Numbered from the stretch's first letter, positions 24,754-50,730 are shown. The stretch is 58,385 bases of DNA from Alphaproteobacteria bacterium (GCA_017534945.1 JAFXVB010000023.1:1-58385), one strand, 5' to 3'. A program made the numbers and translations. Notes: generated by a model from the letters alone, not told the origin.

Positions 24754-25713
24754 TTATACTACTTCGGTCACAGCACGCAAACCACCGTCGCGCGATAATT
24801 GTACCACACGAATTTTCTTTTTCATCTCTTGAATTAAATCTGCGCGGTTATATGCGGGTTGTGTATGTAAAATTCTGTCTGCAAACGCGGCGTATGCGGC
24901 CTCGGCTGATTCTGCGTGAATAGTGGTGTAAAAATGGTCGTGTCCTGTGCCCAACATTTCCCACAAAACCGAAGCATTACTTGTTGAAATTTCACCGCCA
25001 ATAATAACATCCGGGGTCATACGAACAACCAAGTCCAATAATCGTGCATAATCAAAATCATTATTTTGTTCAGTGCGCGACAATATAAAATGCACACGAT
25101 TTTGTTGTGCCACATGAATTTCGCGTGCATCTTCGACGGTAATAATGCGCGCGTTTTGATCGATTAATGTCAACATATGGTTCAAGAAAGTTGTCTTACC
25201 GGTTGCTGTTGCACCACTAATCAATATAGGACTTGCATCATTTATTGCGTGCATCAATCGGTCATACGGATCGTCTGGACGTACTTTTTCGCGTGGTTTA
25301 ATTTTTAACAATTGTTTTCCATGTTCCAAATGATAGTTTTTAAAACTGACATCTGTTGCGCCACCACCACGAATACTCATTGCGACGCCGCCAGTTAAAT
25401 CATTGTCATCATATTGTACATTTGGACCGGCAATTGCAGAAAACCTGTGGTTCCCAGGCAATGTGGCATAAACAACCGGCACACCATGATACGGATCAAA
25501 TGGTTGTTCATAAATATTTGCCACAGTATGAATTAAATCCACCAAATATTGTTTGGAAAGTTGTGGCGCAGAATAAGCAACCCATGGCACGCGCGCACCA
25601 TGCAAACGCATCCATACCTGGCCCGCATGATTTATTGCGATTTCTTCTACAAAAGACGGAGTATAAAATTCCGCCAAAGGTTTTAATAAAGAATCAAGAA
25701 CTACATTTGTCAT
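24754..25713 (-). CDS. virB11: VirB11-family secretion ATPase
   Basis: EEIAIN, ISGATATGKTTF, ITVEDARE, RMTPDVIIGGE, TTIHA. Confidence 0.85.
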   Translation of the reverse strand: MTNVVLDSLLKPLAEFYTPSFVEEIAINHAGQVWMRLHGARVPWVAYSAPQLSKQYLVDLIHTVANIYEQPFDPYHGVPVVYATLPGNHRFSAIAGPNVQYDDNDLTGGVAMSIRGGGATDVSFKNYHLEHGKQLLKIKPREKVRPDDPYDRLMHAINDASPILISGATATGKTTFLNHMLTLIDQNARIITVEDAREIHVAQQNRVHFILSRTEQNNDFDYARLLDLVVRMTPDVIIGGEISTSNASVLWEMLGTGHDHFYTTIHAESAEAAYAAFADRILHTQPAYNRADLIQEMKKKIRVVQLSRDGGLRAVTEVV

Positions 25714-26387: not shown

Positions 26388-26717
26388 ATGAAAAAATTAG
26401 CCACAGTGTTGGGTGTTGTTGGTTCGTTGTCTTTGGTTGCATGTGATTCACATGCGGGTGCAAAAAACGGTGATACGGTAATAATTGATTTTGCTGGATT
26501 TGATGGGGGTGTTCAATTTGATGGCGGCACCGCACAAAATTATCCACTTACATTGGGCAGTGGTCAATTCGTTCCTGGATTTGAAGAACAATTAATTGGT
26601 GCAAATGTTGGTGAAACACGCGATGTGAATATAAGATTCCCAGATAATTATGTGCCAAGCCTTGCCGGGCACCAGGTTGTATTCAAAGTCACCGTAAAAG
26701 AAATCAAATCAAAATAA
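26388..26717 (+). CDS. FKBP-type PPIase lipoprotein (trigger-factor-like domain)
   Basis: LVAC lipobox plus GDTVIIDF...LGSGQFVPGFEEQLIG...FPDNY. Confidence 0.85.
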   Translation: MKKLATVLGVVGSLSLVACDSHAGAKNGDTVIIDFAGFDGGVQFDGGTAQNYPLTLGSGQFVPGFEEQLIGANVGETRDVNIRFPDNYVPSLAGHQVVFKVTVKEIKSK

Positions 26718-26745
26718 AAATCCCCCAAATGGGGGATTTTTTTAT
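26717..26745. terminator. bidirectional terminator closing the phage-like operon
   Basis: AAATCCCCC-aaat-GGGGGATTT with A and T tracts. Confidence 0.8.
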
Positions 26746-26999
26746 TTTATTACTGCGGATTTAATAAGTGTCACATCTTCTTTTATTCCGTCAATTTTTA
26801 ATTGCAATTGTCCAATCCCAGATTCCAAAATTGTTGTGCGATTTTCCAGTGCTGTGATACGCGATTCCATCCGTTCCAGTTCTGTCAAAGAAGAATCTTG
26901 TCGGGCAACCCAATACACAACACCAAAGGCAAATACTAATAAAAACCAACTGCTTCGTAATAATTCCAAGAAATTTATTATATTTTGTTTTCGCGGCAT
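26742..26999 (-). CDS. TM plus coiled-coil phage-type protein
   Basis: WFLLVFAFGVVYWVA followed by heptads. Confidence 0.6.
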   Translation of the reverse strand: MPRKQNIINFLELLRSSWFLLVFAFGVVYWVARQDSSLTELERMESRITALENRTTILESGIGQLQLKIDGIKEDVTLIKSAVIK

Positions 27000-27001
27000 T
27001 T

Positions 27002-27202
27002 TTATTCTCCACCTTTACCGCGCGCAATCATTGATTCAATTTGACGAACAAAGGCACGATTGGCCTCGGCCCAACGCAATTCATTGTCTGTGGCATTTTG
27101 TCCCAATATTCGTTCGATTGTGATTTTACGCATATGTTGTAATACGGCACGACCAGACGGAGTATTAAATGTGCGCGCATATTGTTTTTCTGTATCTTGC
27201 AT
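27002..27202 (-). CDS. small conserved phage protein downstream of the portal (Bbp19-like)
   Basis: YARTFNTPSGRAVLQHMRKIT...LRWAEANRAFVRQI. Confidence 0.7.
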   Translation of the reverse strand: MQDTEKQYARTFNTPSGRAVLQHMRKITIERILGQNATDNELRWAEANRAFVRQIESMIARGKGGE

Positions 27203-27217
27203 TATTATCCTCCTTTT

Positions 27218-28441
27218 TTACAACACAGTATCTGTTGATGCAATTGCAATTGGTGCCATGTATTTTAATTCCGCATCACTGTGCAGTGATATCGGTTCAA
27301 TCACACCACGTCGCGACAAAATTTGCAATCCGCGTTCACACAGTGGTCTTATAAATTCATGCAATAACCGACCATATGTTGCGCCCAAAACACGCATCAT
27401 ATCGGCATTACGAGCCAATACTTCGGTTGCGGTCATTTCGCGGTCGGACATAAACCCAAGTCTGTCTGCCAACAAAGTATGGCGAATTCTGTCGCGCAAA
27501 TCGTTTAATACCAATTGTGAAACATCAAAATTTGCGCCGCTGGAAAGTGGGGTTAATCCAGAACTACCCACTGCTTTTGGAATTATTGCGCCGGGGGTCA
27601 GGTTTATGTTTTGTAAATTGATAACACCGTCATCATCGGCTTGCCAAATACCGCTGACCGCTATGGTTGCATTTTTCAAAACCAATTCTACAACTTTGTT
27701 TGCGGTTTTTATATCTGGCAAAGCGCGTAATACTGGACTCCGTCCATACAGTTCGCCACTGCATACACTCCAACGGAAAATCAAATAAGGATTTGTTTCA
27801 AATGTGCCGGTTGCGACAATATTATCTTCTATTGCGCCGTCAATATCTAACCATGCAACAAATTCCAAACCAACTAAAGATTGAATCAATCGCAGCGGAG
27901 TATCTGGATTTGCTTCGATTTTTTTCATAACATCTTTTGTGGGGACCCAATTTGGATAACGCATCATCACATCTGTTGCACTCATACTTGTTGTGTGAAA
28001 AATAGCGTTTGGTAAAATCGCAATATCTGTCATTGGGATTGTTGTGAAAGAAAAAGCACTGGTTGCACCAATTGGATTTTCTGTCATAAACATACATGCG
28101 GTACCATAGATACACAAATCCATATATGCCTGATGCACTGTTGTATAAAAATTAGAATCGTTCAAATTTGCGCGCAATGCATTGGTTGCGATTTCTGGAT
28201 TTGGCGAAGCATCGCTTTCTTTGACTAAATTTATCCACAACGATTCTGGGGGTGTCAATAATGTATAAATAGATGCTGCTAAATTATCAACCGCATCTGC
28301 CGCGGTACTATCAAATAATGTTGCAACTTCTGTATTGGTTGTTGGAACGGTATAACGACGCGCGTCATCCCATCGTTGCAACCAAGGTTCACGCAAAGTA
28401 ATTGCTTTGTTATACATTTTTTGTAAATTTTTTATATTCAT
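27218..28441 (-). CDS. portal (head-to-tail connector) protein, T7/BPP-1-like
   Basis: LFDSTAADAVDNLAASI, FRWSVCSGELYGRSPV..ALPDIK, MTATEVLAR, LGATYGRL. Confidence 0.9.
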   Translation of the reverse strand: MNIKNLQKMYNKAITLREPWLQRWDDARRYTVPTTNTEVATLFDSTAADAVDNLAASIYTLLTPPESLWINLVKESDASPNPEIATNALRANLNDSNFYTTVHQAYMDLCIYGTACMFMTENPIGATSAFSFTTIPMTDIAILPNAIFHTTSMSATDVMMRYPNWVPTKDVMKKIEANPDTPLRLIQSLVGLEFVAWLDIDGAIEDNIVATGTFETNPYLIFRWSVCSGELYGRSPVLRALPDIKTANKVVELVLKNATIAVSGIWQADDDGVINLQNINLTPGAIIPKAVGSSGLTPLSSGANFDVSQLVLNDLRDRIRHTLLADRLGFMSDREMTATEVLARNADMMRVLGATYGRLLHEFIRPLCERGLQILSRRGVIEPISLHSDAELKYMAPIAIASTDTVL

Positions 28442-28456
28442 ATTTTTCTCCTTTAT

Positions 28457-29305
28457 CTATATTTTGAAATTTGTGTTTGCAGTATACATTCGTGTGGTAT
28501 GGTCATGTGGTCGGCATGGTATCGGCGTTGCATTTATTGCACCCGAAAACGCATCCAATCCGTCATCATGACCAATGCCGCCAATCGGTGACCACCCAAG
28601 CATTTCTGCCATAAAAGGCGTTTGTTGAATGCGGGTATGTGCAAATATGCGACCCGCACCCAAAAGTGGTTCCAAAGTATTTAAAATTCGTAATTCTTTT
28701 TTCGTATTATTTGTAATTTTTTGAACATATATACCACCACCACGATTGGCGATTTTATCCGCTAATATTTCGGGCAGTGCATTTCCCAATCCATTTGTTT
28801 CAACGGCCAACCTATGCAACTTATATTTATTTAGAAAATCCAAAACAATATCGCATTGATATGTTAATGGTTGTGGGCAATTATCCGGGACAACCATGTA
28901 CATAATATCATGTAAAAATATGTTATGAGATTTATCATCGCGAAATATCAAAACACATACACTGGAATCTGTATTTTTATGTCCCAATGCAGGATCCCAA
29001 TATACGGCGGCCCCAGTTATCGCCCAATCACCAATTTTTGCATTTGTTGGATTAAATTCGTGTGAATATAATTGAATTTTCCCTGGGTCTAAACGAATAT
29101 TATCCATCGGTGTAAATTTCAGCATCATTTGTGCCATGAAATGATGTTCACCGACGTTTTTTCTTAATTCATTTATTTTGTCAACTGGGAACACTTCTGG
29201 CCAAGTTGGCACGCCATCTGGGGTTTGGATTGGTAAAGAAAATTTTTTATATCCAATTAAAAAAGGCGTTGAAAAATGAAATTTTTTATTTACTATATTT
29301 GACAT
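28457..29305 (-). CDS. terminase large subunit, C-terminal nuclease half
   Basis: WPEVF..., YWDPALG, AVETNGLGNALP, HDDGLDAFSGAI; GGGAG SD inside the dnaB antisense strand. Confidence 0.85.
   Translation of the reverse strand: MSNIVNKKFHFSTPFLIGYKKFSLPIQTPDGVPTWPEVFPVDKINELRKNVGEHHFMAQMMLKFTPMDNIRLDPGKIQLYSHEFNPTNAKIGDWAITGAAVYWDPALGHKNTDSSVCVLIFRDDKSHNIFLHDIMYMVVPDNCPQPLTYQCDIVLDFLNKYKLHRLAVETNGLGNALPEILADKIANRGGGIYVQKITNNTKKELRILNTLEPLLGAGRIFAHTRIQQTPFMAEMLGWSPIGGIGHDDGLDAFSGAINATPIPCRPHDHTTRMYTANTNFKI
29269..29296 (+). promoter_or_regulatory. putative dnaB promoter (leaderless transcript)
   Basis: TTGAAA-16-TACTAT ending 7 bp before ATG 29304; no SD. Confidence 0.5.
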
Positions 29306-30872
29306 GGACTTTACTCCCAAAACTTTACCTACGAATCTGGAAGCCGAACAAGCGGTGTTGGCGGCTGTGTTGATGAATAATCGTGCTTTGGAAAAAGTCG
29401 GTGATTTTTTAAAACCCGAACACTTTTCACATCCTGCACACCAAGAAATTTATAAATTGGCATTGCGTCGTTTTGCGGCGGGCGTTCCTTTTGATATCAT
29501 TACGGCCAAAGATTATTTGACGCAACAGGGGACATTGGAAACCGTCGGTGGCATTAATTATTTGACTGAATTGTCTTCTGCTGGGGCGACGGTGGTAAAT
29601 GTTGAACAATATGGTCGAATTGTTTACGAAAACGCAATGCGCCGTCAATTGATTGCGCTGGGGCAATCAATTATGGATGATGCGTATGTTGAAAACCTAG
29701 ATAATCCTGTGGCGCGCCAATTGGAATGTGCGGAACAAAAATTGTTTGATATGGCGTCTGTTGGGGTTGCCGAACATGAACCTGCAACAATTGGTGTGGC
29801 ATTGCAAAGCGCATTGGAAGAAGCGCAAATTGCATACAAGGCCGATGGAAAATTATCGGGTTTAACCACTGGACTTACCAATTTGGATAAATCAATCAGT
29901 GGTTTGCATCACTCGGATTTAATTATTATTGCGGGTCGTCCTGCGATGGGTAAAACCACATTGGCGATGAATATCGCATTTAATGCGGCAAACGCAATTA
30001 TGACGGGACGCGCGAATAATCAATACAAAGGTGTGGTTGCGTTTTTCTCACTTGAAATGTCCGCATCACAATTGGCAACACGTGTTTTATCGTCCCAGAC
30101 AAAAATTCCGGCAACATCTATGCGTGAAGGTTCGTTGACTGATGAAGAATTTTTAAAAATGTCCCAATATTCCAAGGCAATCGCGCAAACGCCATTGGTT
30201 ATTGATGATACGGCGGGTATGTCTGTGCCTATGATTCGCACGCGTGCGCGGCGATTGGCGCGTAAATACGGTGGAATTGCATTGATTGTCATTGATTACC
30301 TGCAATTGATGATGTCGCCCGGTGGCAAACGAAGTGAAAATCGTGTCCAAGAATTGTCCGAAATTACTCGCGGTTTAAAAATGTTGGCCAAAGAGTTAGA
30401 TGTTCCTGTGATTGCATTGTCTCAATTATCACGCAGTGTTGAAATGCGTGATGATAAACGACCACAATTGGCGGATTTGCGTGAATCTGGATCAATTGAA
30501 CAAGATGCCGATATTGTTATGTTCACATATCGTGAAGAATACTATTTGGACAATCGTGATCCATCACAACGCATTTCTAATACAACATCACAAAACAGTG
30601 TTGAAACATGGCAAAGACGGCTTGAACGCGCCCGGGGCAAGGCGGATGTGATTATCGGTAAAAACCGTCATGGCCGACCCGAAACGGTTCGTTTGGCGTT
30701 TCTGGGTGATTATTGCCTGTTTGATAATTTGGATGAAATGGCGGAACGCAATACCGCACCATTACCCGGTGATTTCGCAGATACAGGCATCCCTGAACAA
30801 CATAATATTGTGCCAAATGACGATAATATTGGTGTTGATGTGTCCGCGATTCCTGATGATATACCATTATAA
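29304..30872 (+). CDS. dnaB: replicative DNA helicase, host type
   Basis: LPTNLEAEQAVL, AGRPAMGKT, FSLEMS, IDYLQL, LSQLSR, DLRESGSIEQDAD. Confidence 0.97.
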   Translation: MDFTPKTLPTNLEAEQAVLAAVLMNNRALEKVGDFLKPEHFSHPAHQEIYKLALRRFAAGVPFDIITAKDYLTQQGTLETVGGINYLTELSSAGATVVNVEQYGRIVYENAMRRQLIALGQSIMDDAYVENLDNPVARQLECAEQKLFDMASVGVAEHEPATIGVALQSALEEAQIAYKADGKLSGLTTGLTNLDKSISGLHHSDLIIIAGRPAMGKTTLAMNIAFNAANAIMTGRANNQYKGVVAFFSLEMSASQLATRVLSSQTKIPATSMREGSLTDEEFLKMSQYSKAIAQTPLVIDDTAGMSVPMIRTRARRLARKYGGIALIVIDYLQLMMSPGGKRSENRVQELSEITRGLKMLAKELDVPVIALSQLSRSVEMRDDKRPQLADLRESGSIEQDADIVMFTYREEYYLDNRDPSQRISNTTSQNSVETWQRRLERARGKADVIIGKNRHGRPETVRLAFLGDYCLFDNLDEMAERNTAPLPGDFADTGIPEQHNIVPNDDNIGVDVSAIPDDIPL

Positions 30873-30949
30873 TTTTCTGTACAGATTTTACTTGCCAAGT
30901 ATTTAAAAATTGACTAAACTTTTGTCAAGTATTCCAAGGAGTCAATAAT

Positions 30950-31957
30950 ATGGCACAAGAAGAAATCATTTTTCCAAATAATATACGAACAATCCGTTTG
31001 AACAACGGCATGAAAATGACGGAACTGGCGCGTAAGACCGGTTTAAGTTTGTCTGCTGTATCAAAAATAGAAAAGGGTGTTCGTCGTTTAAACCAAAAAC
31101 AGTTATTAAACATCTGCAATATTTTGGGTTGCAAACTGTCTGACATTTTCATCAAAGAATCTGATGCGGTTGCTGATAAATGGCAAACTGAAATTAAACG
31201 CCGTTTGAACGATAACGAACATGGCGGGTTAAAGGTTTTTGGTTCTGGATTGCGTAAAATCCGTCAATTACAGGGCAAAACCATTGCCCAGGCGGCCAAA
31301 GATGCCGGTATGACTTTATCTGTGTACCATAAAATTGAGATTGGCCAACGCGAAATTTATAAAAACGAAGTTGAACCTTTGGCAAAATCTTTTGCTTTAT
31401 CCGCCGAAGGCATGTTCGATAAAATCGCAAATCTTTATAAATCTGGCGAATTAACCAAACAGATAAACAAGGTCAAAGAACGTGTTAAATCTGTTTTGAT
31501 TCCTGATAATCCTGTATCTGGTATTGATATGCATGATGGATTATATGGTGCGAAATTATATGACAGTGCGCGCCGAAAATTGGTACCGGTGTTTGGGTCG
31601 CCTGCGGGTCGTGCAATTTCCTTTAAAAGAAATGATAAGGTTATGATTGTCGCGCCGGCATCACTTGAAGGTCGCAAATCAATTTACGCTGTTATTCCAA
31701 ATTCAAAACGCACAGGTGGTTTTATTCCTGAAAAATCGTATGTGTTTGTTGATGCAATGCAACCGGCCAATGCGGGTGATTTGGCATTATGTTTTGATGC
31801 TGATTTTGCAAAATTGGGTGCCGAAGATGTCATCAATGCTCAACTTGCGATTATACATGCCGATGCCAAGGGCAAATTATACGGCGCGATTGTTGACCCT
31901 CAGGAAAAAATTTACGCCAAAACCATGCATCGTGTTGTTTTGATTTTGACCGAATAA
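30950..31957 (+). CDS. XRE-family regulator with two HTH domains and a C-terminal S24-like region
   Basis: IRTIRLNNGMKMTELARKTGLSLSAVSKIEKG; LRKIRQLQGKTIAQAAKDAGMTLSVYHKIEIG. Confidence 0.85.
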   Translation: MAQEEIIFPNNIRTIRLNNGMKMTELARKTGLSLSAVSKIEKGVRRLNQKQLLNICNILGCKLSDIFIKESDAVADKWQTEIKRRLNDNEHGGLKVFGSGLRKIRQLQGKTIAQAAKDAGMTLSVYHKIEIGQREIYKNEVEPLAKSFALSAEGMFDKIANLYKSGELTKQINKVKERVKSVLIPDNPVSGIDMHDGLYGAKLYDSARRKLVPVFGSPAGRAISFKRNDKVMIVAPASLEGRKSIYAVIPNSKRTGGFIPEKSYVFVDAMQPANAGDLALCFDADFAKLGAEDVINAQLAIIHADAKGKLYGAIVDPQEKIYAKTMHRVVLILTE

Positions 31958-31980
31958 TAATTTGATGGAGGGGGAAAAAC

Positions 31981-32640
31981 ATGAAACCAAAAGCAAATCT
32001 TGTCGCACAAAGATTGGTTAACCTGTATCGTCAAGAACACGTAATTCTGGGCGGATGGGCTGCGTTAAACCCTATCTTTGTTAATGAAGCCACCGAAGAT
32101 GTCTTGATTGAAATGGCGGATTTGCCGACGGGTAAAATGTTGGTTCAGCACATTAAAAATTTGCGCAGTGGAAAAACCCCTATGGATTCGATTGACCGAA
32201 ATCTTTTGCCATATGGCGGTTTGATGGCGGAATCTGCGGTTACCATGCCATTGGATGAAAAACAATGGATTGATTTAGAAAACGCAATCAATAATTTTAC
32301 ACCAACTCAACAAGGTTTAATTGATTTACAAAAATTGGATATCATCAAAAGATTTGGTGACGAATGGTTGGTTGCAATTAAAACAATTTTATCTGGTCGT
32401 CCTGAATTATTACCAAAATGGAAAATTGTCATGCAAACATATCGCGCATATCATTTGTGGGATATGGCGACCCAAATTATAAATCAACCATTAACAGAAC
32501 GTGCGCGCGCACAAATTCAGGCTGATATGCCTGAATATGAAACTTTTTTGCCTATGTTCGCAGATGAAGGTAAAAAATTATTAGAACGTCTGCGTACATT
32601 TATGAAGGAAACCAAACACCCAGATACCCAACAAGATTAA
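31981..32640 (+). CDS. hypothetical protein
   Basis: GGAGGGG SD; 219 aa. Confidence 0.75.
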   Translation: MKPKANLVAQRLVNLYRQEHVILGGWAALNPIFVNEATEDVLIEMADLPTGKMLVQHIKNLRSGKTPMDSIDRNLLPYGGLMAESAVTMPLDEKQWIDLENAINNFTPTQQGLIDLQKLDIIKRFGDEWLVAIKTILSGRPELLPKWKIVMQTYRAYHLWDMATQIINQPLTERARAQIQADMPEYETFLPMFADEGKKLLERLRTFMKETKHPDTQQD

Positions 32641-33254
32641 TCGTCATCATCGCTTGTTCTGTATATTGTATCCATTGTATGCGGGGTTCCAATATAAATC
32701 ATTGTGCCGTTTGGTGATAAAATAAAATCCAATTCTCGTAATTTTTCGCGTAATGCTTCGCGCTTTTGTGGGGTGTTGGAAGTATTTGGAACTTCCACAT
32801 CATCGCATATTATTAAATCTGCGCGCATACCGGTAATATTGCCATGTATTCCTTGGCAAATAACAGACGGTTCACGAATCCCAATTGGACGATTTATTGT
32901 TATTTTATCATTTGCCCACTCTTTTTTTGGATTTGGAACCATATCGAAACACAGCGGATGGTTTTCTAATATATTTTTAATATGTTGAACCATGCGTGCC
33001 GCCAATACAGTATGTGCCGACAAAACCAATATTCTGGTTTTTGGACGTAAATATAAAATATACGCCGCAAATATTCCAACAATGGTAGATTTACCAGAAT
33101 GTCGAAACGCCATCAACAAACCTCTATGATTTGGTGATTGCCATACATCATACAAAAAATTTAACATATCTTTGTGGTGTTTTGGTGTTTTATATCCCAA
33201 AATATCATTCCAAGAATCAGCAAATTGGTGGACTTGTGTAAGCATTTTATCCAA
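32637..33254 (-). CDS. terminase large subunit, N-terminal ATPase half
   Basis: LMAFRHSGKST (Walker A), ADLIICDDVE (Walker B), IYIGTPH. Confidence 0.88.
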   Translation of the reverse strand: MDKMLTQVHQFADSWNDILGYKTPKHHKDMLNFLYDVWQSPNHRGLLMAFRHSGKSTIVGIFAAYILYLRPKTRILVLSAHTVLAARMVQHIKNILENHPLCFDMVPNPKKEWANDKITINRPIGIREPSVICQGIHGNITGMRADLIICDDVEVPNTSNTPQKREALREKLRELDFILSPNGTMIYIGTPHTMDTIYRTSDDDD

Positions 33255-33594
33255 CTATATCATCAACTCGTGAAAGTAATTTTTTCAATAAATTTGGTTT
33301 GTTTGTTTTTATATTTTTTAATTTTTCTAAATTATCCTTTTTTTTATCTTCAAAAGATTGTGCTGTTTCATCCCGCATACGACGCAAAACCGCGCCTGTC
33401 ATAGTGTTGGACGCGGATACGCCACTGGCGCCGTATTTGGCGCGTTGCGAAGCCAATGCTTTTTTTATTAAATTAGTTTTATTTTGTTCGTCATTTGCTA
33501 TTTTTTGCAAAATTTCCTGACGTTGGTTATTTGCAGATTTTTTTGTTTTTTGATAATTCAAAATTTCGTTAACATCGGATACCAATTGTCCCAT
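33247..33594 (-). CDS. phage virion protein (internal-virion-like)
   Basis: ALASQRAKYGASGVS motif; position after tail tubular B. Confidence 0.55.
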   Translation of the reverse strand: MGQLVSDVNEILNYQKTKKSANNQRQEILQKIANDEQNKTNLIKKALASQRAKYGASGVSASNTMTGAVLRRMRDETAQSFEDKKKDNLEKLKNIKTNKPNLLKKLLSRVDDIVG

Positions 33595-33612
33595 TTTTAT
33601 CTCCTTTTTGTA

Positions 33613-35325
33613 TTAAATTTCGTATTGTCCATAAATTGTCACAGAAAAAACTGTAATCGGCATAGGTTCATCGCCATGTAATGTCCACAGTGGTGTTGAT
33701 TCATCTATTTGTGAACCCAACATATTCATAGATATATCACCAGAAAATCCTGGGGATGACGGCAAATAAACTTCGTTTGGTAATTCAATACGCATATTGT
33801 TTATAAAAGCGCTTTTGGTATTCATCAAACGTAAACTTATTTTGCGCAGACGTAAATGTACCGGACGATGTCCAGAAAAATTCATAGGCACCCCCGATGC
33901 ACTAAATTCAATTTTATAAGTTGTTGAATCTGTCAAAGCAGTATGCGAAAATTTTGCCAGTTTATATGTGCTATTGTTTTCTATAATAACAAAAGTTTCG
34001 CCGCCACTGATTGCCACAGATGTAAATTTTCCGTATGTTGTATATCGTGCCCATGCAGAAATCCCAAGATTAGTGTTTTGGTTTAATACGGCTATATCGC
34101 CATTTTTATTCACAATATACAACTGTTTTGATACTTTGTTATATGCAATATCTGTTGGTTCATTAATCAAGTGTTTGGCAAAAATACATAAGTCATCAGC
34201 GTTATATTTATCACCCAAAGTATCCAAAGATAATTTACGAATATCTTTCATAGTATTGGATACAAAAACAGTTTCGCCTTCGATTTTTTGTGGCGTCAAC
34301 GAATATCCTGTGACACTTCCAACTGTTGTATGCTGTTTGATGTTTATATTGGATGGGGTAAGTGGTTGATTGGCGATTGCCCATTCTCCATGTGATGTTA
34401 AGACCTGTAATTTATCGCTACTGATTAAATTACATATTTCTTGTCTTTCTTTGGATAATAATGTTGTTGTAATTGCTTCGTCATCTAAGCCTGTGCCGGC
34501 ATTAAAATTATGGTGTTCACCTGTTTGTGACATCCAAATACCACCGGGATTATAATATGTGCCACCAAATACCAATCTATCTTGGTGAAAAGTCACAGAA
34601 CGTGGCCATCCATGACGCGAATCAAACGCACTTTCTAACCAATCAGTAATAGCGGTTCCTGGTAAAGTATATTCTTCCACACTTTTAGCATAGACCACAG
34701 TTGGATTGACATATTCAATAATTTCCCATGTTTGATTTCCAAATTGCACAATTGTTCCAACATTTGATGATGTCCAATAATTGCCAGATGCAGTAAATAC
34801 CGCAGACATTGACCCATATGGGCCACTGGTAAGTGTGATTGAAATGCCGCGCATTTCATCATATTTCATTAAAGGAAATTGTGGGTATATTCCTGTGGAG
34901 TCATAAAAACTGAATATCCCCAAAGAAAAACTGTTGCCACTTTTTGTTAAAATATATGGGCAAATATCCGGATGAACAAAAATCATAGAATCACCACGAC
35001 CTGTGAATTGTATTTTTGATAAAGATTCCGTTGACCATGGCGATACTAATGTTTGCACTAATGTATCATTGGAATAAATTGATACTGTAAAATTAGTAAA
35101 TACCAATATATAATTTTCTTGTTGTGAAATATCAAACGAAAATATACGTGCCGCACCAGATAATACAGCAACATCAACCAATCCCGGACGTAATGTCAAT
35201 CCGCCACCGGCCAATACATCCATGTTTTCCAAATGTGCCAACCCAGATATATTTTTGTTCAAGTAAAATTCAGGTGCAATTTCACCATTTGCAAAAGAAT
35301 TTTGTGTATGTATAAATTCTGTCAT
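33613..35325 (-). CDS. tail tubular protein B / stabilisation protein
   Basis: QNSFANGEIAP, GWPRSVTFHQDRLVFGG, WMSQTG. Confidence 0.85.
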   Translation of the reverse strand: MTEFIHTQNSFANGEIAPEFYLNKNISGLAHLENMDVLAGGGLTLRPGLVDVAVLSGAARIFSFDISQQENYILVFTNFTVSIYSNDTLVQTLVSPWSTESLSKIQFTGRGDSMIFVHPDICPYILTKSGNSFSLGIFSFYDSTGIYPQFPLMKYDEMRGISITLTSGPYGSMSAVFTASGNYWTSSNVGTIVQFGNQTWEIIEYVNPTVVYAKSVEEYTLPGTAITDWLESAFDSRHGWPRSVTFHQDRLVFGGTYYNPGGIWMSQTGEHHNFNAGTGLDDEAITTTLLSKERQEICNLISSDKLQVLTSHGEWAIANQPLTPSNINIKQHTTVGSVTGYSLTPQKIEGETVFVSNTMKDIRKLSLDTLGDKYNADDLCIFAKHLINEPTDIAYNKVSKQLYIVNKNGDIAVLNQNTNLGISAWARYTTYGKFTSVAISGGETFVIIENNSTYKLAKFSHTALTDSTTYKIEFSASGVPMNFSGHRPVHLRLRKISLRLMNTKSAFINNMRIELPNEVYLPSSPGFSGDISMNMLGSQIDESTPLWTLHGDEPMPITVFSVTIYGQYEI

Positions 35326-35340
35326 AACATACCTCCTTTT

Positions 35341-35859
35341 TTAAAATCTGGCATTAATCAAAGAAAATTGCTCTATCCCAGAATTTATATCTGTGGTGGA
35401 ATCTATAAACTTTGCATTTTGAAATTCTGCTTCATATAAATTGATAAGTGTTCTTAACATTTGTTGACTGCCGGTAAGTGGTATACAAAATTCTATCGCT
35501 AATTTAGTAGCAGCCAACGCAACAAAATAACTTGGAAATTTTTCTGTGCTTACACGCATAATGGCCATCATTTGAACATTATCTGTATTTGCACAAATTT
35601 GATTTCCATATATTCGACCATTACAATGCAAAATCCTTAGTACATTTTCAGGAATAATAAATTCATTGTCTTGATTTTTTTCAATTGATAAATTTTGTGT
35701 GGCGAAACGCCATGGATGATTTGACAACAAAGCATCAATTACTATGTCATATAATGTTCTGGCTAATTGTGCAGAAGCACTGTCTGTATTAAGTGATACC
35801 AACGGTTTTTCGCCCAACTTTAACAATGCCATAGAACATAAATCTAATTTCGTAAGCAT
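35341..35859 (-). CDS. tail tubular protein A / adaptor
   Basis: LDLCSMALLKLGEKPLVSL, HPWRFA, FPSYFV.LAA.KLA. Confidence 0.85.
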   Translation of the reverse strand: MLTKLDLCSMALLKLGEKPLVSLNTDSASAQLARTLYDIVIDALLSNHPWRFATQNLSIEKNQDNEFIIPENVLRILHCNGRIYGNQICANTDNVQMMAIMRVSTEKFPSYFVALAATKLAIEFCIPLTGSQQMLRTLINLYEAEFQNAKFIDSTTDINSGIEQFSLINARF

Positions 35860-35875
35860 ATTTATCCTTTTTAGT

Positions 35876-35906
35876 AAAAAGATAGTGGGACAAATATCCC
35901 ACTATC
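35876..35906 (-). terminator. terminator after the capsid genes
   Basis: GATAGTGGGA-caaata-TCCCACTATC plus T5 on the minus strand. Confidence 0.7.
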
Positions 35907-35932
35907 ATATTAAGTTTGTTTTATAGTTTATA

Positions 35933-36163
35933 TTAAGACAATGCATCTACTGTCACAGTATCGCTTGCTACTGCTATTGTCATGATGGATGTGCCGTCTG
36001 ACGCATTGATTATGATAATATCGCCAGTATTCATTAATGTCGCAACATTGTTGAAATACCCACTCGCAGAAATTGCGGTCAATGTTTCATCCGCGGCATA
36101 GTGCCACAAAGTAAAACCATTTGCATACGCAATTACAGATAATTTTTTATTTTGAAATGCCAT
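35933..36163 (-). CDS. small phage protein after the capsid gene (decoration-like)
   Basis: LSVIAYANGFTLWHY...GYFN...GDIIII. Confidence 0.7.
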   Translation of the reverse strand: MAFQNKKLSVIAYANGFTLWHYAADETLTAISASGYFNNVATLMNTGDIIIINASDGTSIMTIAVASDTVTVDALS

Positions 36164-36202
36164 CTGTTTTCCTTTTGGTTATTTGTTTTATATAGAGTGT
36201 TG

Positions 36203-37024
36203 TTATGCGTTATCTTTACATTTAAGACGAACGATTCCATCTTGATCAATCAAGACTGCGCCTTGGGACATGCTGTTGCTAATAAAGTGCGCCGCACGTT
36301 CACCATGCCAAGTAATATCTGTTTTGACTTCTTGACCGCATGCATGACCAATACTGGACGCATGATATATAAAGCAACTGCGTTCTGTTGTATTGCTTAA
36401 CGGCAAATCATTGTGCAAAACCCATGTGATGCCCAACCATTTTCTGGCTTCATAACCTTTGACCATTGGATTGTCGCCAACATAATCTGCTGACACAAAT
36501 TCAGTAATGCCCAACAATTCGTTCCATTGATGAACACCAACAACACCGAATCTGCGGCCATCATCTGGAACATCTTTTTCGTTTAATTTTTCGATTGCTT
36601 GCAAAATCATCGATTTGCTTAAACCGGCTGAAAAGTTGCCAACATATGCGGTGGCACCGTTCATTGCATCAATAATTAATTCATCTGTTTTGCGACCCAA
36701 TGCATACGCACCAGCCGAAGCAACAACACGACGTTCATCAATATTGGTTTTCAATTCATCCAAACTATCAACCCAATCACCAGCATAGTAATCCTGTAAA
36801 ACACATTCCACAGGTTGATGATTCAAATTCATAACTGGCACAATACCATGTCTGGATTTTGTGCTGGCGGTGCCGCGTCCAATTGTTTGGAAAGTTGTAG
36901 ATTGTCCCACAACACCAGATTTGCTGCGAATTGTAGAACGTAATTTTGTGCCCATTTGCTGATAAGCCAAATGAACATCTGCTTCAAATTGTTTCACAAA
37001 AACTTGATCGATAGAAACAGACAT
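36203..37024 (-). CDS. major capsid protein
   Basis: IDQVFVKQFEADVHLAYQQMGTKLR, YAGDWVDSLDELK, AYALGRKTD; AAGGA SD. Confidence 0.88.
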   Translation of the reverse strand: MSVSIDQVFVKQFEADVHLAYQQMGTKLRSTIRSKSGVVGQSTTFQTIGRGTASTKSRHGIVPVMNLNHQPVECVLQDYYAGDWVDSLDELKTNIDERRVVASAGAYALGRKTDELIIDAMNGATAYVGNFSAGLSKSMILQAIEKLNEKDVPDDGRRFGVVGVHQWNELLGITEFVSADYVGDNPMVKGYEARKWLGITWVLHNDLPLSNTTERSCFIYHASSIGHACGQEVKTDITWHGERAAHFISNSMSQGAVLIDQDGIVRLKCKDNA

Positions 37025-37207
37025 ATTTATTCCTTTTGTTAAATTAAAAAAAACATGGTGCAAAAAATTGCACCGACCAAAGATTGATTTTTGTTTTTTT
37101 GATTATGCAAACATAACATTTGCGTCATATAACAAAATGCGGGGTCTGTAAAAGATTGTCCTGCAACAGTTTTAGTTAGACTAATTATTCATCTAACTAA
37201 AATTATT

Positions 37208-37233
37208 AAAAAACCCGCAATTTCTTGCGGGTT
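37208..37233 (-). terminator. terminator after the histone-like gene
   Basis: AACCCGCAA/TTGCGGGTT plus T tract. Confidence 0.75.
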
Positions 37234-37254
37234 AAATTGACTTAAAAGAAAATA

Positions 37255-37575
37255 TTATTTTCTTTTTGCCGCTTTTTTGCATGCGCATTTTTTCGCAGGT
37301 GCTTTTTTAGCAACAGCTTTCTTAGCAACTGGTTTTTTTGCAGCAACTTTTTTAACCGCTACTTTCTTAGCAGCTGGTTTTTTAGCAACTACTTTTTTTG
37401 CAACTGGTTTTTTCGCAGCAACTTTTTTTGCAGGTGCTTTTTTTGCAACTGGTTTTTTAGCAGCTGGTTTCTTTGCAGCTACTTTTTTAGCAGCTGGTTT
37501 TTTTGCTGCAGGTTTTTTAGCAGCAGGTTTAGCGGCAGGTTTAGCAGCTTTTTTTGCTGAAAATAAGAATGCCAT
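37255..37575 (-). CDS. histone H1-like (HC2/AlgP-type) Lys/Ala-rich protein
   Basis: KKPAA/KKVAA pentapeptide repeats; AGGAG SD; TGGACT-17-TAGAAT promoter at 37629-37657. Confidence 0.85.
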   Translation of the reverse strand: MAFLFSAKKAAKPAAKPAAKKPAAKKPAAKKVAAKKPAAKKPVAKKAPAKKVAAKKPVAKKVVAKKPAAKKVAVKKVAAKKPVAKKAVAKKAPAKKCACKKAAKRK

Positions 37576-37686
37576 TCTTCTCTCCTTTTTATGTTTTGGA
37601 TAGAACAAATTTTTTTGTTCTTACTTATATTCTATATGAAAAGAAAATAAGAGTCCAGAAAAAATTATTTTTTTATTTAATTTTTT

Positions 37687-38355
37687 TTAATTTTTTTCAT
37701 TTGAATATAATTTTTTAAAACCATTTTCAATTTTACGAACATATTCAGGATCCGCATCACGCCAATATTTTGGATCGCGCATCATGCGTCTTAAATCTGC
37801 GTCTGTTAAATTTTCTTGCACATCAATATTTGTTTCGATGTGTGGTTCCATTGATTGCATCATCGCGTACACACCTTGGATTCCGCTGGCGCTGGAACAT
37901 AATGATTCAAATGCATCGTGTGGTAAAAATTTTTCACCAAATGTATTTATCGCAGATAAAGCATCGTTCATTTTATCGCGTGACCCAAAAAATTTTTCCA
38001 ATTTTGAAATTTCATCTGTTTCATTTTTAACAGAAAATAATTCTGTGATGACGGGTGATAAAAATTCTTCTGCTACGGAATAAATTTGTTCAACTTGATG
38101 TGATGTTAATCCCATATCATGAAATTTTTGTTTAATCGATTCGTCATCGAACAAATCATTTTTTGGATAATCATCCGCATTTTCTGGCACACCAATTGCA
38201 CGATTAAATTTTTCGCGCGTGACTTTATCGTCATCATTATGTGGCACAGATATCATACCACCAATTTTCTTTTCCAATTCATTATAAGATTTTAATAACG
38301 CATCAACATTGGTTGTGCCATCATCGTTTTGAAATTTTTCTGGTACTTTTTGCAT
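37687..38355 (-). CDS. capsid assembly (scaffold) protein
   Basis: VPEKFQNDDG..NVDALLKSYNELEKKIG; MMRDPKYWRD. Confidence 0.8.
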   Translation of the reverse strand: MQKVPEKFQNDDGTTNVDALLKSYNELEKKIGGMISVPHNDDDKVTREKFNRAIGVPENADDYPKNDLFDDESIKQKFHDMGLTSHQVEQIYSVAEEFLSPVITELFSVKNETDEISKLEKFFGSRDKMNDALSAINTFGEKFLPHDAFESLCSSASGIQGVYAMMQSMEPHIETNIDVQENLTDADLRRMMRDPKYWRDADPEYVRKIENGFKKLYSNEKN

Positions 38356-38557
38356 TTGTTCTCCTTTTTGTATCCTTTGATTTACGCAAGAAATAAATTC
38401 CGCCAAGTGTGAATACAGATTGCATGGTCATAAACAAATCTGCATCGCCAACTAAATAAGCCGCGATGGCGGATAAAATTCCAACGCCTGATAATATATA
38501 TGTTCTGTGTCCGGCCAAGAATCCGCCATGAATAATTTTTTGTATTTTCATTTCCAT
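38321..38557 (-). CDS. putative holin
   Basis: GFLAGHRTYILSGVGILSAIAAYLVG; two TM segments and a basic tail. Confidence 0.55.
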   Translation of the reverse strand: MEMKIQKIIHGGFLAGHRTYILSGVGILSAIAAYLVGDADLFMTMQSVFTLGGIYFLRKSKDTKRRTNAKSTRKISKR

Positions 38558-38564
38558 TTTTCCA

Positions 38565-38975
38565 TTACAAGTAAAATAACAATCCATCTAATTCCAAAAT
38601 ATATCCGCGTGCAATTGACCAAGATGGATTTAATTCTGTCCTATGAAATTTAGTCGCACCAAAACAACAATCTTCCAGATTGTGTTTTAACATTTTATCA
38701 ACAACGCGCGCACACATTTGAAAGGTTCGTGCGTTTGTGTTGACACCTAATAAATCATGACGTTTTGATTTTTTATTCAAAGATTCAAACAATCCAGATT
38801 CCATAACGAAATCCAATTCGGTTTGATTATTGACACGTGCACCATTTACAATCATCGATGCCAAAGCTTCGACCACGCGTAAAGATTGTGCGCATGTTTC
38901 CGCGTAAACAACGCGTGATATTTTATATACATCTGGATTAAAATCATTTTGATGTTTGATTAATGGCAATTGCAT
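38565..38975 (-). CDS. SleB/CwlJ-like cell wall hydrolase (endolysin-like)
   Basis: ISRVVYAET, GATKFH, PSWS, GLLFY. Confidence 0.7.
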   Translation of the reverse strand: MQLPLIKHQNDFNPDVYKISRVVYAETCAQSLRVVEALASMIVNGARVNNQTELDFVMESGLFESLNKKSKRHDLLGVNTNARTFQMCARVVDKMLKHNLEDCCFGATKFHRTELNPSWSIARGYILELDGLLFYL

Positions 38976-39001
38976 TGCGAATACCCTTTGGTTTAAAACA
39001 T

Positions 39002-39028
39002 AAAAAAAGCGCACATAAAAATGTGCGC
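39002..39028 (-). terminator. terminator in the leader of the phage-like operon
   Basis: GCGCACAT-tttt-ATGTGCGC followed by T7. Confidence 0.75.
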
Positions 39029-39093
39029 AAATTAAAAAAGGTAAAAAAAATCACGTCATTCGACGCGCAGATTTCTCCCTCTTGATGCTGTAC

Positions 39094-39122
39094 ATTATAT
39101 CACAAATCGCAACATAAGTCAA
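39094..39122 (-). promoter_or_regulatory. consensus sigma70 promoter
   Basis: TTGACT-17 bp-TATAAT on the minus strand. Confidence 0.75.
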
Positions 39123-39127
39123 GTGGT

Positions 39128-39808
39128 TTATATCATGATTTCATCACCATACGCCAAAACATATCGTGTGCCACACCTTAATACCAATGCACCATTTTCG
39201 TTTATGCCCATCAATTGTGCGGTTGCACCACGATATTTTACAGTTGTATTTAATCCTGTCGCCATAGACATCCATCTTTCGCGCACAATTGCAAAGTCCG
39301 CCTTTATCCATTTATCCAGATATTTCATCAATCGTGTCAAAACATCTTTTTCATTTACCATAACGAAATCATTGACCTTGGTTGTTTTATATTCAGCAAC
39401 ACTAGGATTTGTTGCAACATTGATTCCAATTCCAACAACAACAAATCTTCCATAGTATTCAATTAAAATCCCAGAAATTTTTTTATCATCAACCAATATA
39501 TCATTTGGCCATTTTATAGTCGGTACAATTCCAAAAGAAAACAAAGTATCTGCAACCGCAATTGCCACAGCATAAGACAATCGTGCATCGCGTTCTTCAC
39601 ATCCATAAATAAAACTGGCATACAAATTTCCATGATGCGAAACCCATTTGCGCCGAAAACGTCCACGTCCGGCACTTTGTGCCGCAGCAACAATGGCGGT
39701 GTGATCACCGGCACGATGCTCTGCAATCATAGTTGTTGCCATGGTTTGCGTGCTGGGGATTTTATCAAAAGAAAATACTTTATACAGAGCCAATTTTATA
39801 AACCCCAT
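39128..39808 (-). CDS. birA: biotin-protein ligase (no HTH)
   Basis: QSAGRGRFRRKW, IKWPNDI, KISGIL, GIGINV; start uncertain. Confidence 0.92.
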   Translation of the reverse strand: MGFIKLALYKVFSFDKIPSTQTMATTMIAEHRAGDHTAIVAAAQSAGRGRFRRKWVSHHGNLYASFIYGCEERDARLSYAVAIAVADTLFSFGIVPTIKWPNDILVDDKKISGILIEYYGRFVVVGIGINVATNPSVAEYKTTKVNDFVMVNEKDVLTRLMKYLDKWIKADFAIVRERWMSMATGLNTTVKYRGATAQLMGINENGALVLRCGTRYVLAYGDEIMI

Positions 39809-40199
39809 CTTTTAATATTATAAAATCACGTCCACACAATTTGCGCAAATCGTAAATTGCATTTTCAATCGTATGCACAGATGCCGGCAAATGTTCCAAT
39901 GTTGACTTTAATTCTGGGCCTGTCATACCACCACCGCGCCGTAATGCCACAATGATACCCTGTTGAATATTTGATAATTGTGGTATTTTATTACCAAACA
40001 CAGATTTTAAAATTCGTGTGTTGTCGGCATGTTGAACAATCAAAGATTTCAATTGTTCGGGGGATATTGCCGCGGGCAGGGGAATATTATCCAAATTTAC
40101 ATCCAATACATTTGGTGTATCCAACACAGTCGCCCCAAGCGACAATAAAATGTGGCGCCATGTGGAATCACTGGAAAAAACCCGAATGCCATTTAACAT
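39780..40199 (-). CDS. hypothetical protein with a C-terminal winged-helix-like domain
   Basis: HTIENAIYDLRK...GVYKI. Confidence 0.6.
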   Translation of the reverse strand: MLNGIRVFSSDSTWRHILLSLGATVLDTPNVLDVNLDNIPLPAAISPEQLKSLIVQHADNTRILKSVFGNKIPQLSNIQQGIIVALRRGGGMTGPELKSTLEHLPASVHTIENAIYDLRKLCGRDFIILKDGVYKIGSV

Positions 40200-42810: not shown

Positions 42811-43044
42811 TTATTTTCTATCTAAATACTTTGCAAATTCTGTAAAACTGGTCCCCGTCAGGTCTAAAATTTTTGCTATGGTTTCTAAGGAAAGCCATCG
42901 TGGTTGTCCATATTTTGTTTTGCGTTTTGATGGATTAAAAGTCGTTGGATCTAAACCTGCCGCACGTGCCATGCCACTGCAACTGAAATGATTTATGCGT
43001 GCCAATTCATCTATTGCATGCCACATATCCCGATTGCGTAACAT
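42811..43044 (-). CDS. alphaproteobacterial Cro/CI-type HTH protein lacking the S24 domain
   Basis: WHAIDELA...SGMARAAGLDPTTFNPSKR...RWLSLETIAKIL. Confidence 0.85.
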   Translation of the reverse strand: MLRNRDMWHAIDELARINHFSCSGMARAAGLDPTTFNPSKRKTKYGQPRWLSLETIAKILDLTGTSFTEFAKYLDRK

Positions 43045-43385
43045 ATAACACTCCCTTTTTACATAAGAATATTATACTAATGGCTGGCGGATTGTGCAAT
43101 GTGCTATAACGCTATACGATAAATATGATAATATTCACAACCAACGCCCGAAGCGGTTGAAATGCTTGCAATACATAAAACTAAAATTTTTGTAAAATTT
43201 GCAAAACCAATATGGGAAATATTCCTAAAATGATCTTCGTCCGCGTCATTATGATAAAAATATATTAAAAAAAGACTGTGTATTTTCGAATCGTTTCCTA
43301 TACGATATTCCAAAAATCATACAAAAGAGAGAATGTGTAAACTAATTTTTACGGAATTAAATTTGATTAGATTAGATTTATAAAT

Positions 43386-43468
43386 TTGACTTTTGTATAT
43401 ATGTGTTATACCCTAACCAGTAAAGAAAGGAGACTAATAAGACATTGGGCGCTTGTTGGTCTTTTTTT
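43386..43468 (+). promoter_or_regulatory. promoter plus leader terminator of the radical-SAM operon
   Basis: TTGACT..TGnTATACC; AGACTAATAAG/CTTGTTGGTCT stem followed by a T-run. Confidence 0.55.
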
Positions 43469-43484
43469 ATTATAAGGATGAACT

Positions 43485-45519: not shown

Positions 45520-45538
45520 ATAACCAAAAGGAAAAATA

Positions 45539-50306: not shown

Positions 50307-50730
50307 TGATAATATAAGCATGAAACAACAAAGTATGCTCTTATCCGGATTACGTGGGTGTGACGGTATATATAACGATGATATATCAAAAACAATAATC
50401 AGGAAAATTCGGTGCACCGTATTAAATAATGCTGCCGACAATAATACAAATTTTATGCGAGGGGACATATCTCTAGATGTATTAGCTAATTTTGCCAAAA
50501 GTCGTAATAAATATCCTGTACATTTTTATATGCATGTTTGTTATTGTTGTGAAATCATTGGTTTTAAACATCCTGATGAAAATATCAGAAAATGGTTTTA
50601 TAAGGCTTATTGTTTATTAGTCAAAGCTCTTTACCTTAACCCAGAAACAGAACAAGAATGCGATGAAAGACTTCAAGACGGTAAAACAATATCTTTTGAT
50701 GATTATGCAAAAAACATAATCACATATTAG
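50275..50730 (+). CDS. hypothetical protein
   Basis: 151-aa ORF; LLSGLRGCDG, PVHFYMH. Confidence 0.7.
   Translation: MVCVIQKWVFNDNISMKQQSMLLSGLRGCDGIYNDDISKTIIRKIRCTVLNNAADNNTNFMRGDISLDVLANFAKSRNKYPVHFYMHVCYCCEIIGFKHPDENIRKWFYKAYCLLVKALYLNPETEQECDERLQDGKTISFDDYAKNIITY

Follow-up and report, generated by a model that had tools for sequence, protein, structure and literature searches.

Introduction

Has a podovirus-derived gene cluster that sits in the chromosome of a gut bacterium stayed a phage, in whole or in part, or has it become a device of its host, such as a gene transfer agent (GTA)? Only a handful of independent GTA lineages is known, and the best-studied alphaproteobacterial type, RcGTA, is derived from a siphovirus. 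The locus that raises the question lies in a stretch of 58,385 nucleotides (GCA_017534945.1 JAFXVB010000023.1:1-58385, hereafter the window), which is the whole 58-kb contig of a 909-kb metagenome-assembled genome (MAG) that is ~90% complete. The source lineage is Candidatus Enterousia in the GTDB order Rs-D84. Members of this order are uncultured Alphaproteobacteria of gut and rumen, with universally reduced genomes and a presumed dependence on partner organisms. A first-pass annotation of the window had proposed that the cluster is a domesticated podovirus and a candidate GTA. We compared the locus across Enterousia, Rs-D84 and the wider Alphaproteobacteria and, judging from its genes and their conservation, regard it as a strong candidate, though not a proven one, for a GTA of a new type.

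Results

A podovirus virion module bordered by host genes

The phage-derived cluster spans 26742–39014 on the minus strand, and housekeeping genes border both ends, as had been proposed: birA on one side and a gene for an FKBP-type isomerase on the other. The earlier description of a minus-strand set holds for the structural genes, but dnaB, a double helix-turn-helix (HTH) gene and p219, at 29304–32640, are on the plus strand. The order of transcription is hydrolase, holin-like, scaffold, Lys/Ala histone-like, capsid, p76, tubular A, tubular B, p115, TerL-N, TerL-C, portal, p66 and p85. The two TerL genes, which encode the halves of the large terminase, are listed in the section on the terminase; the other genes are as follows, with dN/dS values that are pairwise NG86 estimates and are to be read as rough.

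38565–38975, minus strand: cell-wall hydrolase (endolysin-like); weak match to phrog_938 endolysin (2e-7); dN/dS 0.35
38321–38554, minus strand: holin-like small membrane protein, by its size, its site between hydrolase and scaffold and its hydrophobic segments
37687–38355, minus strand: scaffold, T7 capsid assembly protein type; PF05396 (3e-10); dN/dS 0.26
37255–37575, minus strand: Lys/Ala-rich histone-H1-like protein in the interval between scaffold and capsid, by its sequence
36203–37024, minus strand: major capsid protein; PF19821 (1e-70); dN/dS 0.089
35933–36163, minus strand: p76, small conserved protein of the virion module; phrog_18004; dN/dS 0.14
35341–35859, minus strand: tail tubular A (adaptor); phrog_394 (1e-30); dN/dS 0.20
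33613–35325, minus strand: tail tubular B (nozzle); phrog_376 (1e-82); dN/dS 0.19
33247–33594, minus strand: p115, coiled-coil protein; no family match; dN/dS 0.24
27218–28441, minus strand: portal (head-tail connector); PF12236 (7e-76); dN/dS 0.070
27002–27202, minus strand: p66, small protein after the portal in the Bbp19 position; homologues follow the portal in other lineages
26742–26999, minus strand: p85, transmembrane and coiled-coil protein at the cluster end; weak phage-family matches; dN/dS 0.14

Family searches bore out the portal, capsid, scaffold, tubular A and B and T7-type large terminase (NF033889) that the first-pass annotation had named, and the hydrolase as well, through its weak endolysin match. 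Two of its labels were not sustained: p76, called decoration-like, matches only a phage family without an assigned function (phrog_18004), and no family match supports an internal-virion-like p115. The genome encodes the parts of a T7/LME-1-type virion module, with portal, scaffold, capsid, adaptor, nozzle, a gp17-type fibre N-domain and a T7-type TerL; its departures are that the fibre is encoded at other loci and that TerL is in two genes. The nearest solved structure to the capsid is 9EG4, the T=7 capsid of Legionella phage LME-1 (E 3e-25), and the nozzle matches the tail nozzle PDB 8CK1 (7e-30) and 9EFK orf18.

The small genes are recognizable by position. The p76 family likewise follows the capsid directly in Skermanella, p115 has positional orthologues after tubular B in all relatives, including other families and orders, and p85 is kept in congeners. 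A PHROG search with p66 gave no match, and the Azospirillum open reading frame (ORF) at the same position belongs to PF25181, Phage_Bbp19. The hydrolase is in a position orthologous to that of the Hydrolase_2 gene (PF07486) of the canonical ~14-kb element described below. The product of 38321–38554 is probably a holin; the gene is kept in relatives and has no family match.

The annotated presence of host-type genes inside the cluster was also correct, these being dnaB and the Lys/Ala histone-like gene. An ORF with >70% K/A/P/V stands at the latter site in 67 of 69 Enterousia species, and a multi-pass membrane protein is encoded there in other Rs-D84 families. Family searches detected no integrase, phage polymerase or phage replication gene in the cluster region and no integrase adjoining it, in line with the earlier claim. 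The locus is a set of phage-derived particle genes in a cellular genome without a replication or integration module, the sole replication gene being the host dnaB. Neither here nor in the canonical unit does a large core- or ejectosome-type ORF follow the nozzle gene.

Fixed position, purifying selection and descent with the host

The gene order, including the dnaB block and the flank formed by birA and the small gene p148, was identical in all 80 species-level Enterousia loci and in 9 of 9 sampled congeners. Of 328 Rs-D84 genomes, 293 have the capsid gene, nearly always as a single copy; among the 224 high-quality genomes the number is 211, and the gene is represented in 28 of 30 genera. Among ~1,300 gene copies, about one gene was disrupted (a portal gene with a real internal stop); the remaining apparent stops lay in N-terminal query extensions or at natural C-termini. 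The dN/dS values of the cluster, 0.07–0.35, overlap those of host genes (dnaB, 0.082; birA, 0.18; the flanking p148, 0.34). The structural genes are under purifying selection.

RpoB identity among Rs-D84 families is 46–54%, and the splits between the families are thus deep. A concatenated tree of seven cluster proteins and the RpoB tree have a common inter-family topology, ((f5,f6),(f2,f3))|f1, and also agree on the topology of family f3 and on supported within-genus clades. All Rs-D84 copies form one clade with a support of 100. The cluster has been inherited vertically with its host at a conserved locus. The hallmarks of a temperate prophage, namely, an integrase with att sites, a patchy distribution and a variable site, were not found. 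Taken together, the comparisons that the first-pass annotation had called for (synteny, dN/dS with a count of pseudogenes, and cluster and host trees), as well as the genome-wide search for tail fibres described below, all favoured domestication, and none of the outcomes it had named as refuting was seen.

Between families, the capsid is more conserved than RpoB (65–73% vs 46–54%), and within the genus it evolves slightly faster, a pattern which suggests that the capsid carries a large invariant core. Other Rs-D84 families have different host genes interleaved with the cluster: ftsZ beside the portal gene, and an amiC-type amidase gene, an ABC-F ATPase gene and a tRNA gene inside or beside the cluster, with ftsZ, the amidase gene and the tRNA gene located between the portal gene and the terminase halves. 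Such inserts are at L033:3484-5277, L039:2643-4163, L039:4756-5931, L037:3915-5402 and L032:5411-5483.

In IMG/VR, the capsid occurs almost only in provirus calls of 4–14 kb, which are the cluster excised in silico from host contigs. One contig of ~35 kb (L194) has the look of a real podophage; its nozzle gene is followed by two large ORFs, of 748 and 1036 aa, at the position of the T7-type internal-core genes. The chromosomal units lack these ORFs. The PF05065 capsid was found in none of 31 Rs-D84 genomes, with a positive Caulobacter control, which argues against both an RcGTA-type cluster and a helper phage with such a capsid.

A large terminase in two genes

A terminase gene had been annotated, and a T7-type large terminase is indeed encoded, but as two ORFs that are split by a plus-strand block, which had been overlooked. 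The NCBIfam T7 terminase model NF033889 has 500 positions, and the two halves match separate parts of it.

32637–33254, minus strand: TerL-N, ATPase half of the large terminase; NF033889 positions 4–191 (3e-69); dN/dS 0.089
31981–32640, plus strand: p219, conserved protein; all-helical AlphaFold model, pLDDT 83
30950–31957, plus strand: double-HTH (XRE-type) regulator; PF01381 twice; phage repressor families; dN/dS 0.11
29304–30872, plus strand: dnaB, replicative helicase; PF03796 and PF00772; dN/dS 0.082
28457–29305, minus strand: TerL-C, nuclease half with its own Shine-Dalgarno (SD) sequence; NF033889 positions 231–500; PF22530; dN/dS 0.20

The block of dnaB, the double-HTH gene and p219 measures 3.3 kb and fits tightly between the halves: the start codons of TerL-C and dnaB overlap in CATG, and the stop codons of p219 and TerL-N overlap in TTAA. 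TerL-N has intact Walker A, Walker B and GTPH coupling motifs, and TerL-C keeps all of the acidic nuclease motifs (WDPxxG, ExNGxG and DDGLDA). This dnaB is the sole replicative helicase gene detected in the assembly. The p219 model gave no fold match in the PDB; most genera of family f1 keep p219 and the HTH protein together.

TerL consists of two ORFs in every Rs-D84 family sampled. Alignment with intact homologues places the break at the identical residue, right after the GTPHT..TIY coupling motif, in all families having both halves. The surroundings of the break differ: the halves, where adjacent, are 175–380 bp apart; most genera of family f1 hold p219-HTH(-dnaB) between them; in one genus TerL-C still adjoins TerL-N; another has a same-strand dnaB, or the portal gene, at the junction; and ~5 kb, including ftsZ and the portal gene, lies between the halves in family f3. 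The terminase junction is a rearrangement hotspot. The fixed break, the retained motifs and the variable junction indicate that the halves behave as independent cistrons under selection. The start codon of TerL-C has an SD-like sequence ahead of it in the window, as it does in two of five gaps that were read. We found no published example of a natural two-gene large terminase.

Other origins of this arrangement were considered and rejected. An intron or intein does not account for the split, as Rfam detected no intron in the window or in four loci with adjacent halves, and each half has its own stop and start. A recent accidental insertion of dnaB is incompatible with the spread of the block, which all 80 species and most genera of the family have, and the HTH protein has no detectable similarity to the S24 repressor of the canonical unit, from which it might have descended.

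Two further observations concern the junction. The gaps between adjacent halves (L032:7769-7942(-), L037:6393-6606(-), L039:7318-7553(-), L040:12514-12847(+) and L041:12042-12420(+)) contain a TTGACA/TATAAT-type promoter followed by a hairpin with a CU-rich, anti-SD-like loop and a U-run. The element looks like a small RNA gene; it has no match in Rfam and no counterpart in the genome of the window. In the window itself, positions 29269–29306 hold a promoter-like TTGAAA-16-TACTAT, which ends 7 nt ahead of the dnaB ATG, with no visible SD sequence. The helicase may be made from a leaderless mRNA, transcribed from a promoter embedded in the coding sequence of TerL-C.

Tail fibres at other loci

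The statement that no tail fibre is visible is true of the window, but three genes with a T7-fibre N-domain are present on other contigs of the same genome (G000):

C46:8975-10252, minus strand: fibre paralogue with T7-fibre N-domain
C46:21529-22395, plus strand: fibre paralogue with T7-fibre N-domain
C37:29441-30355, minus strand: fibre paralogue with T7-fibre N-domain

Most relatives encode an ORF of 180–240 aa with a T7 gp17-type N-domain immediately upstream of TerL-N. This in-cluster fibre gene is gone from the genome of the window, and its three paralogues, which have a common N-terminal attachment region and differing C-terminal domains, lie beside surface-polysaccharide genes (glycosyltransferase and nucleotide-sugar genes). 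Congeners without the short in-cluster fibre (the window genome, G020, G004 and G003, and probably G018) all have longer fibre genes elsewhere, so the fibre is relocated, and never simply lost, in the congeners identified as lacking the in-cluster copy. Its replacement argues for selection on particles that adsorb. Two of the paralogues have a common C-terminal motif, NLLDYV.ESQ.PT.EN.YTWYRKYKSGWVE.GG.

Candidate regulation and DNA uptake

Signals that may govern the cluster are located as follows.

39094–39122, minus strand: cluster promoter TTGACT-17-TATAAT with extended -10; joint-best sigma-70 match in the region (11/12)
39009–39067, minus strand: two tandem intrinsic-terminator hairpins (39067–39052 and 39028–39009) in the leader before the first gene
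37057–37233, minus strand: two internal terminator-like hairpins (37233–37212 and 37074–37057) before the capsid gene
35881–35906, minus strand: internal terminator-like hairpin before tubular A
26716–26741: bidirectional terminator at the cluster end
39780–40199, minus strand: p148, small conserved protein by birA, upstream of the cluster; AlphaFold pLDDT 87

No other sigma-70 match in the region has an extended -10 TG, and the promoter is kept, together with a downstream CATCAAGAG box, in 62 Enterousia species. Both leader hairpins are kept in 62 species, the first stem with compensatory changes. A promoter that reads into leader terminators is the late-operon logic of lambdoid phages. For BaGTA, a promoter and a leader terminator with antitermination have been shown experimentally, and the same preprint proposes this control for RcGTA and CcGTA. 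By analogy, we infer that the leader terminators of the Enterousia cluster are controlled by antitermination. A candidate regulator is p148, which is at the same site in every Enterousia locus reaching that far. It has no Pfam match, and Foldseek returned weak matches (E 0.02–0.1) to the winged helix-turn-helix regulators RpaA, MarR and Fur/Zur, which would fit a winged-helix-like C-terminal half in the model.

The uptake of DNA from RcGTA is competence-dependent. Of 31 Rs-D84 genomes, 30 have comEC and 29 have dprA, and uptake from BaGTA has also been reported to depend on competence. The retention of both genes would be compatible with competence-dependent uptake here.

An older ~14-kb unit in other Alphaproteobacteria

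The first-pass annotation had placed its candidate in a lineage without a described GTA. We found no publication that links Enterousia or Rs-D84 to a GTA, nor a published description of the unit set out below, but the element is not unique to the lineage and has a wider alphaproteobacterial descent. Capsid relatives (50–67% identity, single copy) occur in ~70 of 400 evenly sampled Alphaproteobacteria, and their presence looks consistently uniform within families. All nine Minwuia species have the capsid, and two sister genera have none. In Skermanella (CP067420.1) and Azospirillum, the element is a stand-alone unit of ~14 kb beside the host genes DUF952-pyrD, and the DUF952 flank recurs in further families. 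The first part of the unit encodes an S24 repressor, three small ORFs, portal, Bbp19, scaffold, capsid and a p76 homologue; the second part encodes adaptor, nozzle, a pectate-lyase fibre, an intact TerL, Hydrolase_2 and a weak GTA_holin_3TM match.

The Rs-D84 cluster has the gene set of the canonical unit (portal, Bbp19, scaffold, capsid, p76, adaptor, nozzle, fibre, TerL and lysis) and, but for a permutation, its order; the capsids are 55–67% identical, and the Rs-D84 copies nest within the group. Features of the canonical unit's own are a single terminase of ~500 aa, an S24/LexA-like repressor at one end and a 676-aa pectate-lyase fibre, whereas the Rs-D84 cluster has a permuted order, a split terminase and interleaved host genes. 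The Rs-D84 cluster is a branch of an older unit of ~14 kb whose terminase is unsplit and which is fixed at conserved host sites in Azospirillum, Skermanella, Minwuia and others. Phages known as isolates are further removed, with capsids ≤43% identical (Pelagibacter phage EXVC031P) and TerL ≤31% identical (T7-like).

Two relatives deserve separate mention. A 5-kb human faecal record labelled 'Bacteriophage sp.' (L151; MT838907.1, 1-5084) encodes portal, p66, scaffold, capsid (62% identical), p76 and adaptor, and is the sister of L139 in the tree; DNA of related chromosomal elements may reach virus-like-particle fractions, or the record may reflect contamination. In one Azospirillum copy (L148:3431-9576), the portal ORF is short, at 219 aa, and borders on a faint integrase-like gene, and a GGDEF/EAL sensor gene and a PRC-barrel gene separate scaffold from capsid. 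This copy may be degenerating or remodelled.

Neighbouring sequences of the window

A solitary gene for a VirB11/T2SSE-type secretion ATPase lies at 24754–25713, ~1 kb beyond the cluster end (median congener identity, 84%; dN/dS 0.05). Downstream of the cluster, positions 43000–51000 form a co-oriented gene block that is strongly AT-rich (GC 0.28–0.33).

Discussion

A probable host-owned particle and its rivals

The reading that we consider probable is that the cluster is a domesticated GTA-like system: a podovirus remnant of T7/LME-1 shape, pared down to genes for lysis, head, short tail and DNA packaging, inherited vertically, owned by the host and maintained by selection, that would make DNA-filled particles and carry host DNA to neighbouring cells. 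Its most serious competitor, which we regard as unlikely, is a domesticated particle with a role other than transfer, such as killing or competing, programmed lysis that frees DNA or nutrients for kin or a partner, or a decoy for or interference with phages. Conservation, selection and co-divergence show usefulness, not purpose; the lysis genes are kept; and release through lysis could matter to the hosts, which are regarded as symbionts or parasites that depend on a partner. However, selection maintains the portal and the two catalytic terminase halves, which are needed only for filling heads with DNA, and the replacement of lost fibre genes speaks for delivery to a recipient. Tailocins, the known killing devices of phage origin, have neither capsid nor terminase.

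There is only a slim chance that the cluster is a mobile defective or satellite-like phage element that spreads via a helper phage. Its 12–14 kb is a typical satellite length, IMG/VR pipelines label the region a provirus, and a related contig is in a human faecal virome record. Yet the element has kept one site and one gene order throughout 80 species, its tree agrees with that of RpoB, it has no integrase or att repeats, and essential host genes lie within it; nor does any of the 31 genomes hold a helper capsid of the PF05065 type. An autonomous minimal temperate phage is more improbable still. The canonical unit does have a LexA/CI-like S24 repressor at one end, as a prophage might, but replication, integration and ejectosome genes are absent, the element is fixed at a conserved host site across genera, its terminase is interrupted by the only dnaB detected in the cell, and the fibres are on other contigs.

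Finally, a decaying, functionless prophage remnant, to which the two-piece terminase, the want of an in-cluster fibre here and the existence of cluster-free genomes might have pointed, is effectively refuted by the retention of every catalytic motif in both terminase halves, by purifying selection across families with RpoB identities of 46–54% and by the rate of ~1 stop per ~1,300 gene copies, and useless DNA should have been lost from genomes that are among the most reduced known.

Several points weigh against the GTA-like interpretation. Expression, particles, packaged DNA and transfer are predictions from the genes. The nearest solved capsid is T=7, and a head of that type would have room for much more DNA than the 12 kb of the cluster, although the fibre genes are on other contigs; a head too small for its own genes, a classic mark of GTAs, is therefore not clearly evident. 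No small terminase was recognized, here or in the canonical element, and to our knowledge a two-piece terminase has never been demonstrated to work. TerL-C and portal lie beyond the 3.3-kb opposite-strand block with dnaB, and their transcription would depend either on reading through the helicase operon in antisense or on a promoter within dnaB. Both comEC and dprA occur widely in bacteria, with 10 of 14 control genomes having them. A few near-complete Rs-D84 genomes have no capsid gene, which makes the element dispensable. Every genome compared is a MAG, and dS is near saturation (~1.2), which is why the dN/dS values are rough.

A possible mode of action

If the cluster is a GTA-like system, it could work as follows. 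The conserved strong promoter (39122–39094) would fire into the two tandem leader terminators until a factor enables RNA polymerase to read through; candidates for this factor are the winged-helix p148, the double-HTH protein and p219. Portal, scaffold and capsid would then assemble a procapsid, probably T=7 as in the closest solved relative, and the ATPase and nuclease halves would cut and pump DNA jointly as two proteins. Adaptor, nozzle and fibres, the latter supplied from three other loci, would finish a stubby tail, and holin and hydrolase would lyse the producer cell. Because no large core- or ejectosome-type ORF is present, recipients would import the DNA via ComEC and DprA. The arrangement with dnaB could couple particle production to the replication state.

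A bolder extension, which we put forward tentatively and hold to be doubtful, is that the locus belongs to an ancient, undescribed family of podovirus-derived GTAs that is inherited vertically in many alphaproteobacterial families, ranging from Azospirillaceae and Minwuia to Rs-D84, and works in DNA exchange, with a two-protein motor and an antisense-dnaB replication switch in Rs-D84.

If the GTA-like interpretation is true, a podovirus-derived GTA fixed in hundreds of species would be an additional independent domestication, and metabolically dependent genomes of ~0.9 Mb would still devote ~1% of their DNA to a particle machine. The retention of such a machine bears on how reduced lineages escape mutational decay. 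The split terminase, kept across lineages whose RpoB is ~50% identical, is a natural experiment on the need for a covalent link between ATPase and nuclease. The unsplit form in cultured Azospirillum and Skermanella makes the hypothesis open to bench testing.

Comparison with known particle systems

The cluster resembles RcGTA and CcGTA (Rhodogtaviriformidae) in being a set of head, tail, packaging and lysis genes without replication or integration genes that is inherited vertically under purifying selection in Alphaproteobacteria. Dispersed accessory fibre genes, a reception predicted to be competence-dependent and a control that is probably by antitermination are further likenesses. The ancestry is unrelated, however: RcGTA-type elements have an HK97 capsid (PF05065) and a siphovirus-type head-tail cluster, whereas the Enterousia locus encodes T7/LME-1-type podovirus proteins, with a PF19821 capsid and a PF12236 portal, and therefore falls outside the RcGTA-like group. 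In addition, the Enterousia terminase is T7-type and split, its head is probably T=7 rather than small, and its transfer function is putative.

BaGTA (Bartogtaviriformidae) is likewise a domesticated cluster of similar size in a host-associated alphaproteobacterium with a reduced genome. In both clusters a leader terminator comes after the promoter, and both are in physical linkage with replication functions (the ROR origin in BaGTA, dnaB in Enterousia). BaGTA has been reported only in Bartonella, and its TerL groups with Sulfitobacter phages. The best phage matches of the Enterousia TerL are T7-like (≤31% identity), a distinction that is drawn from the published description of BaGTA.

The closest solved or isolated relatives of the virion are LME-1, the HTVC010P-type phages and marine Vibrio podoviruses, with which the element has the T7-like architecture in common. 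These phages are autonomous and have genomes of ~32–35 kb, and LME-1 has matches to the T7 internal virion proteins. The Enterousia element, in contrast, carries neither replication genes nor large core-type ORFs and is fixed in the chromosome of its host.

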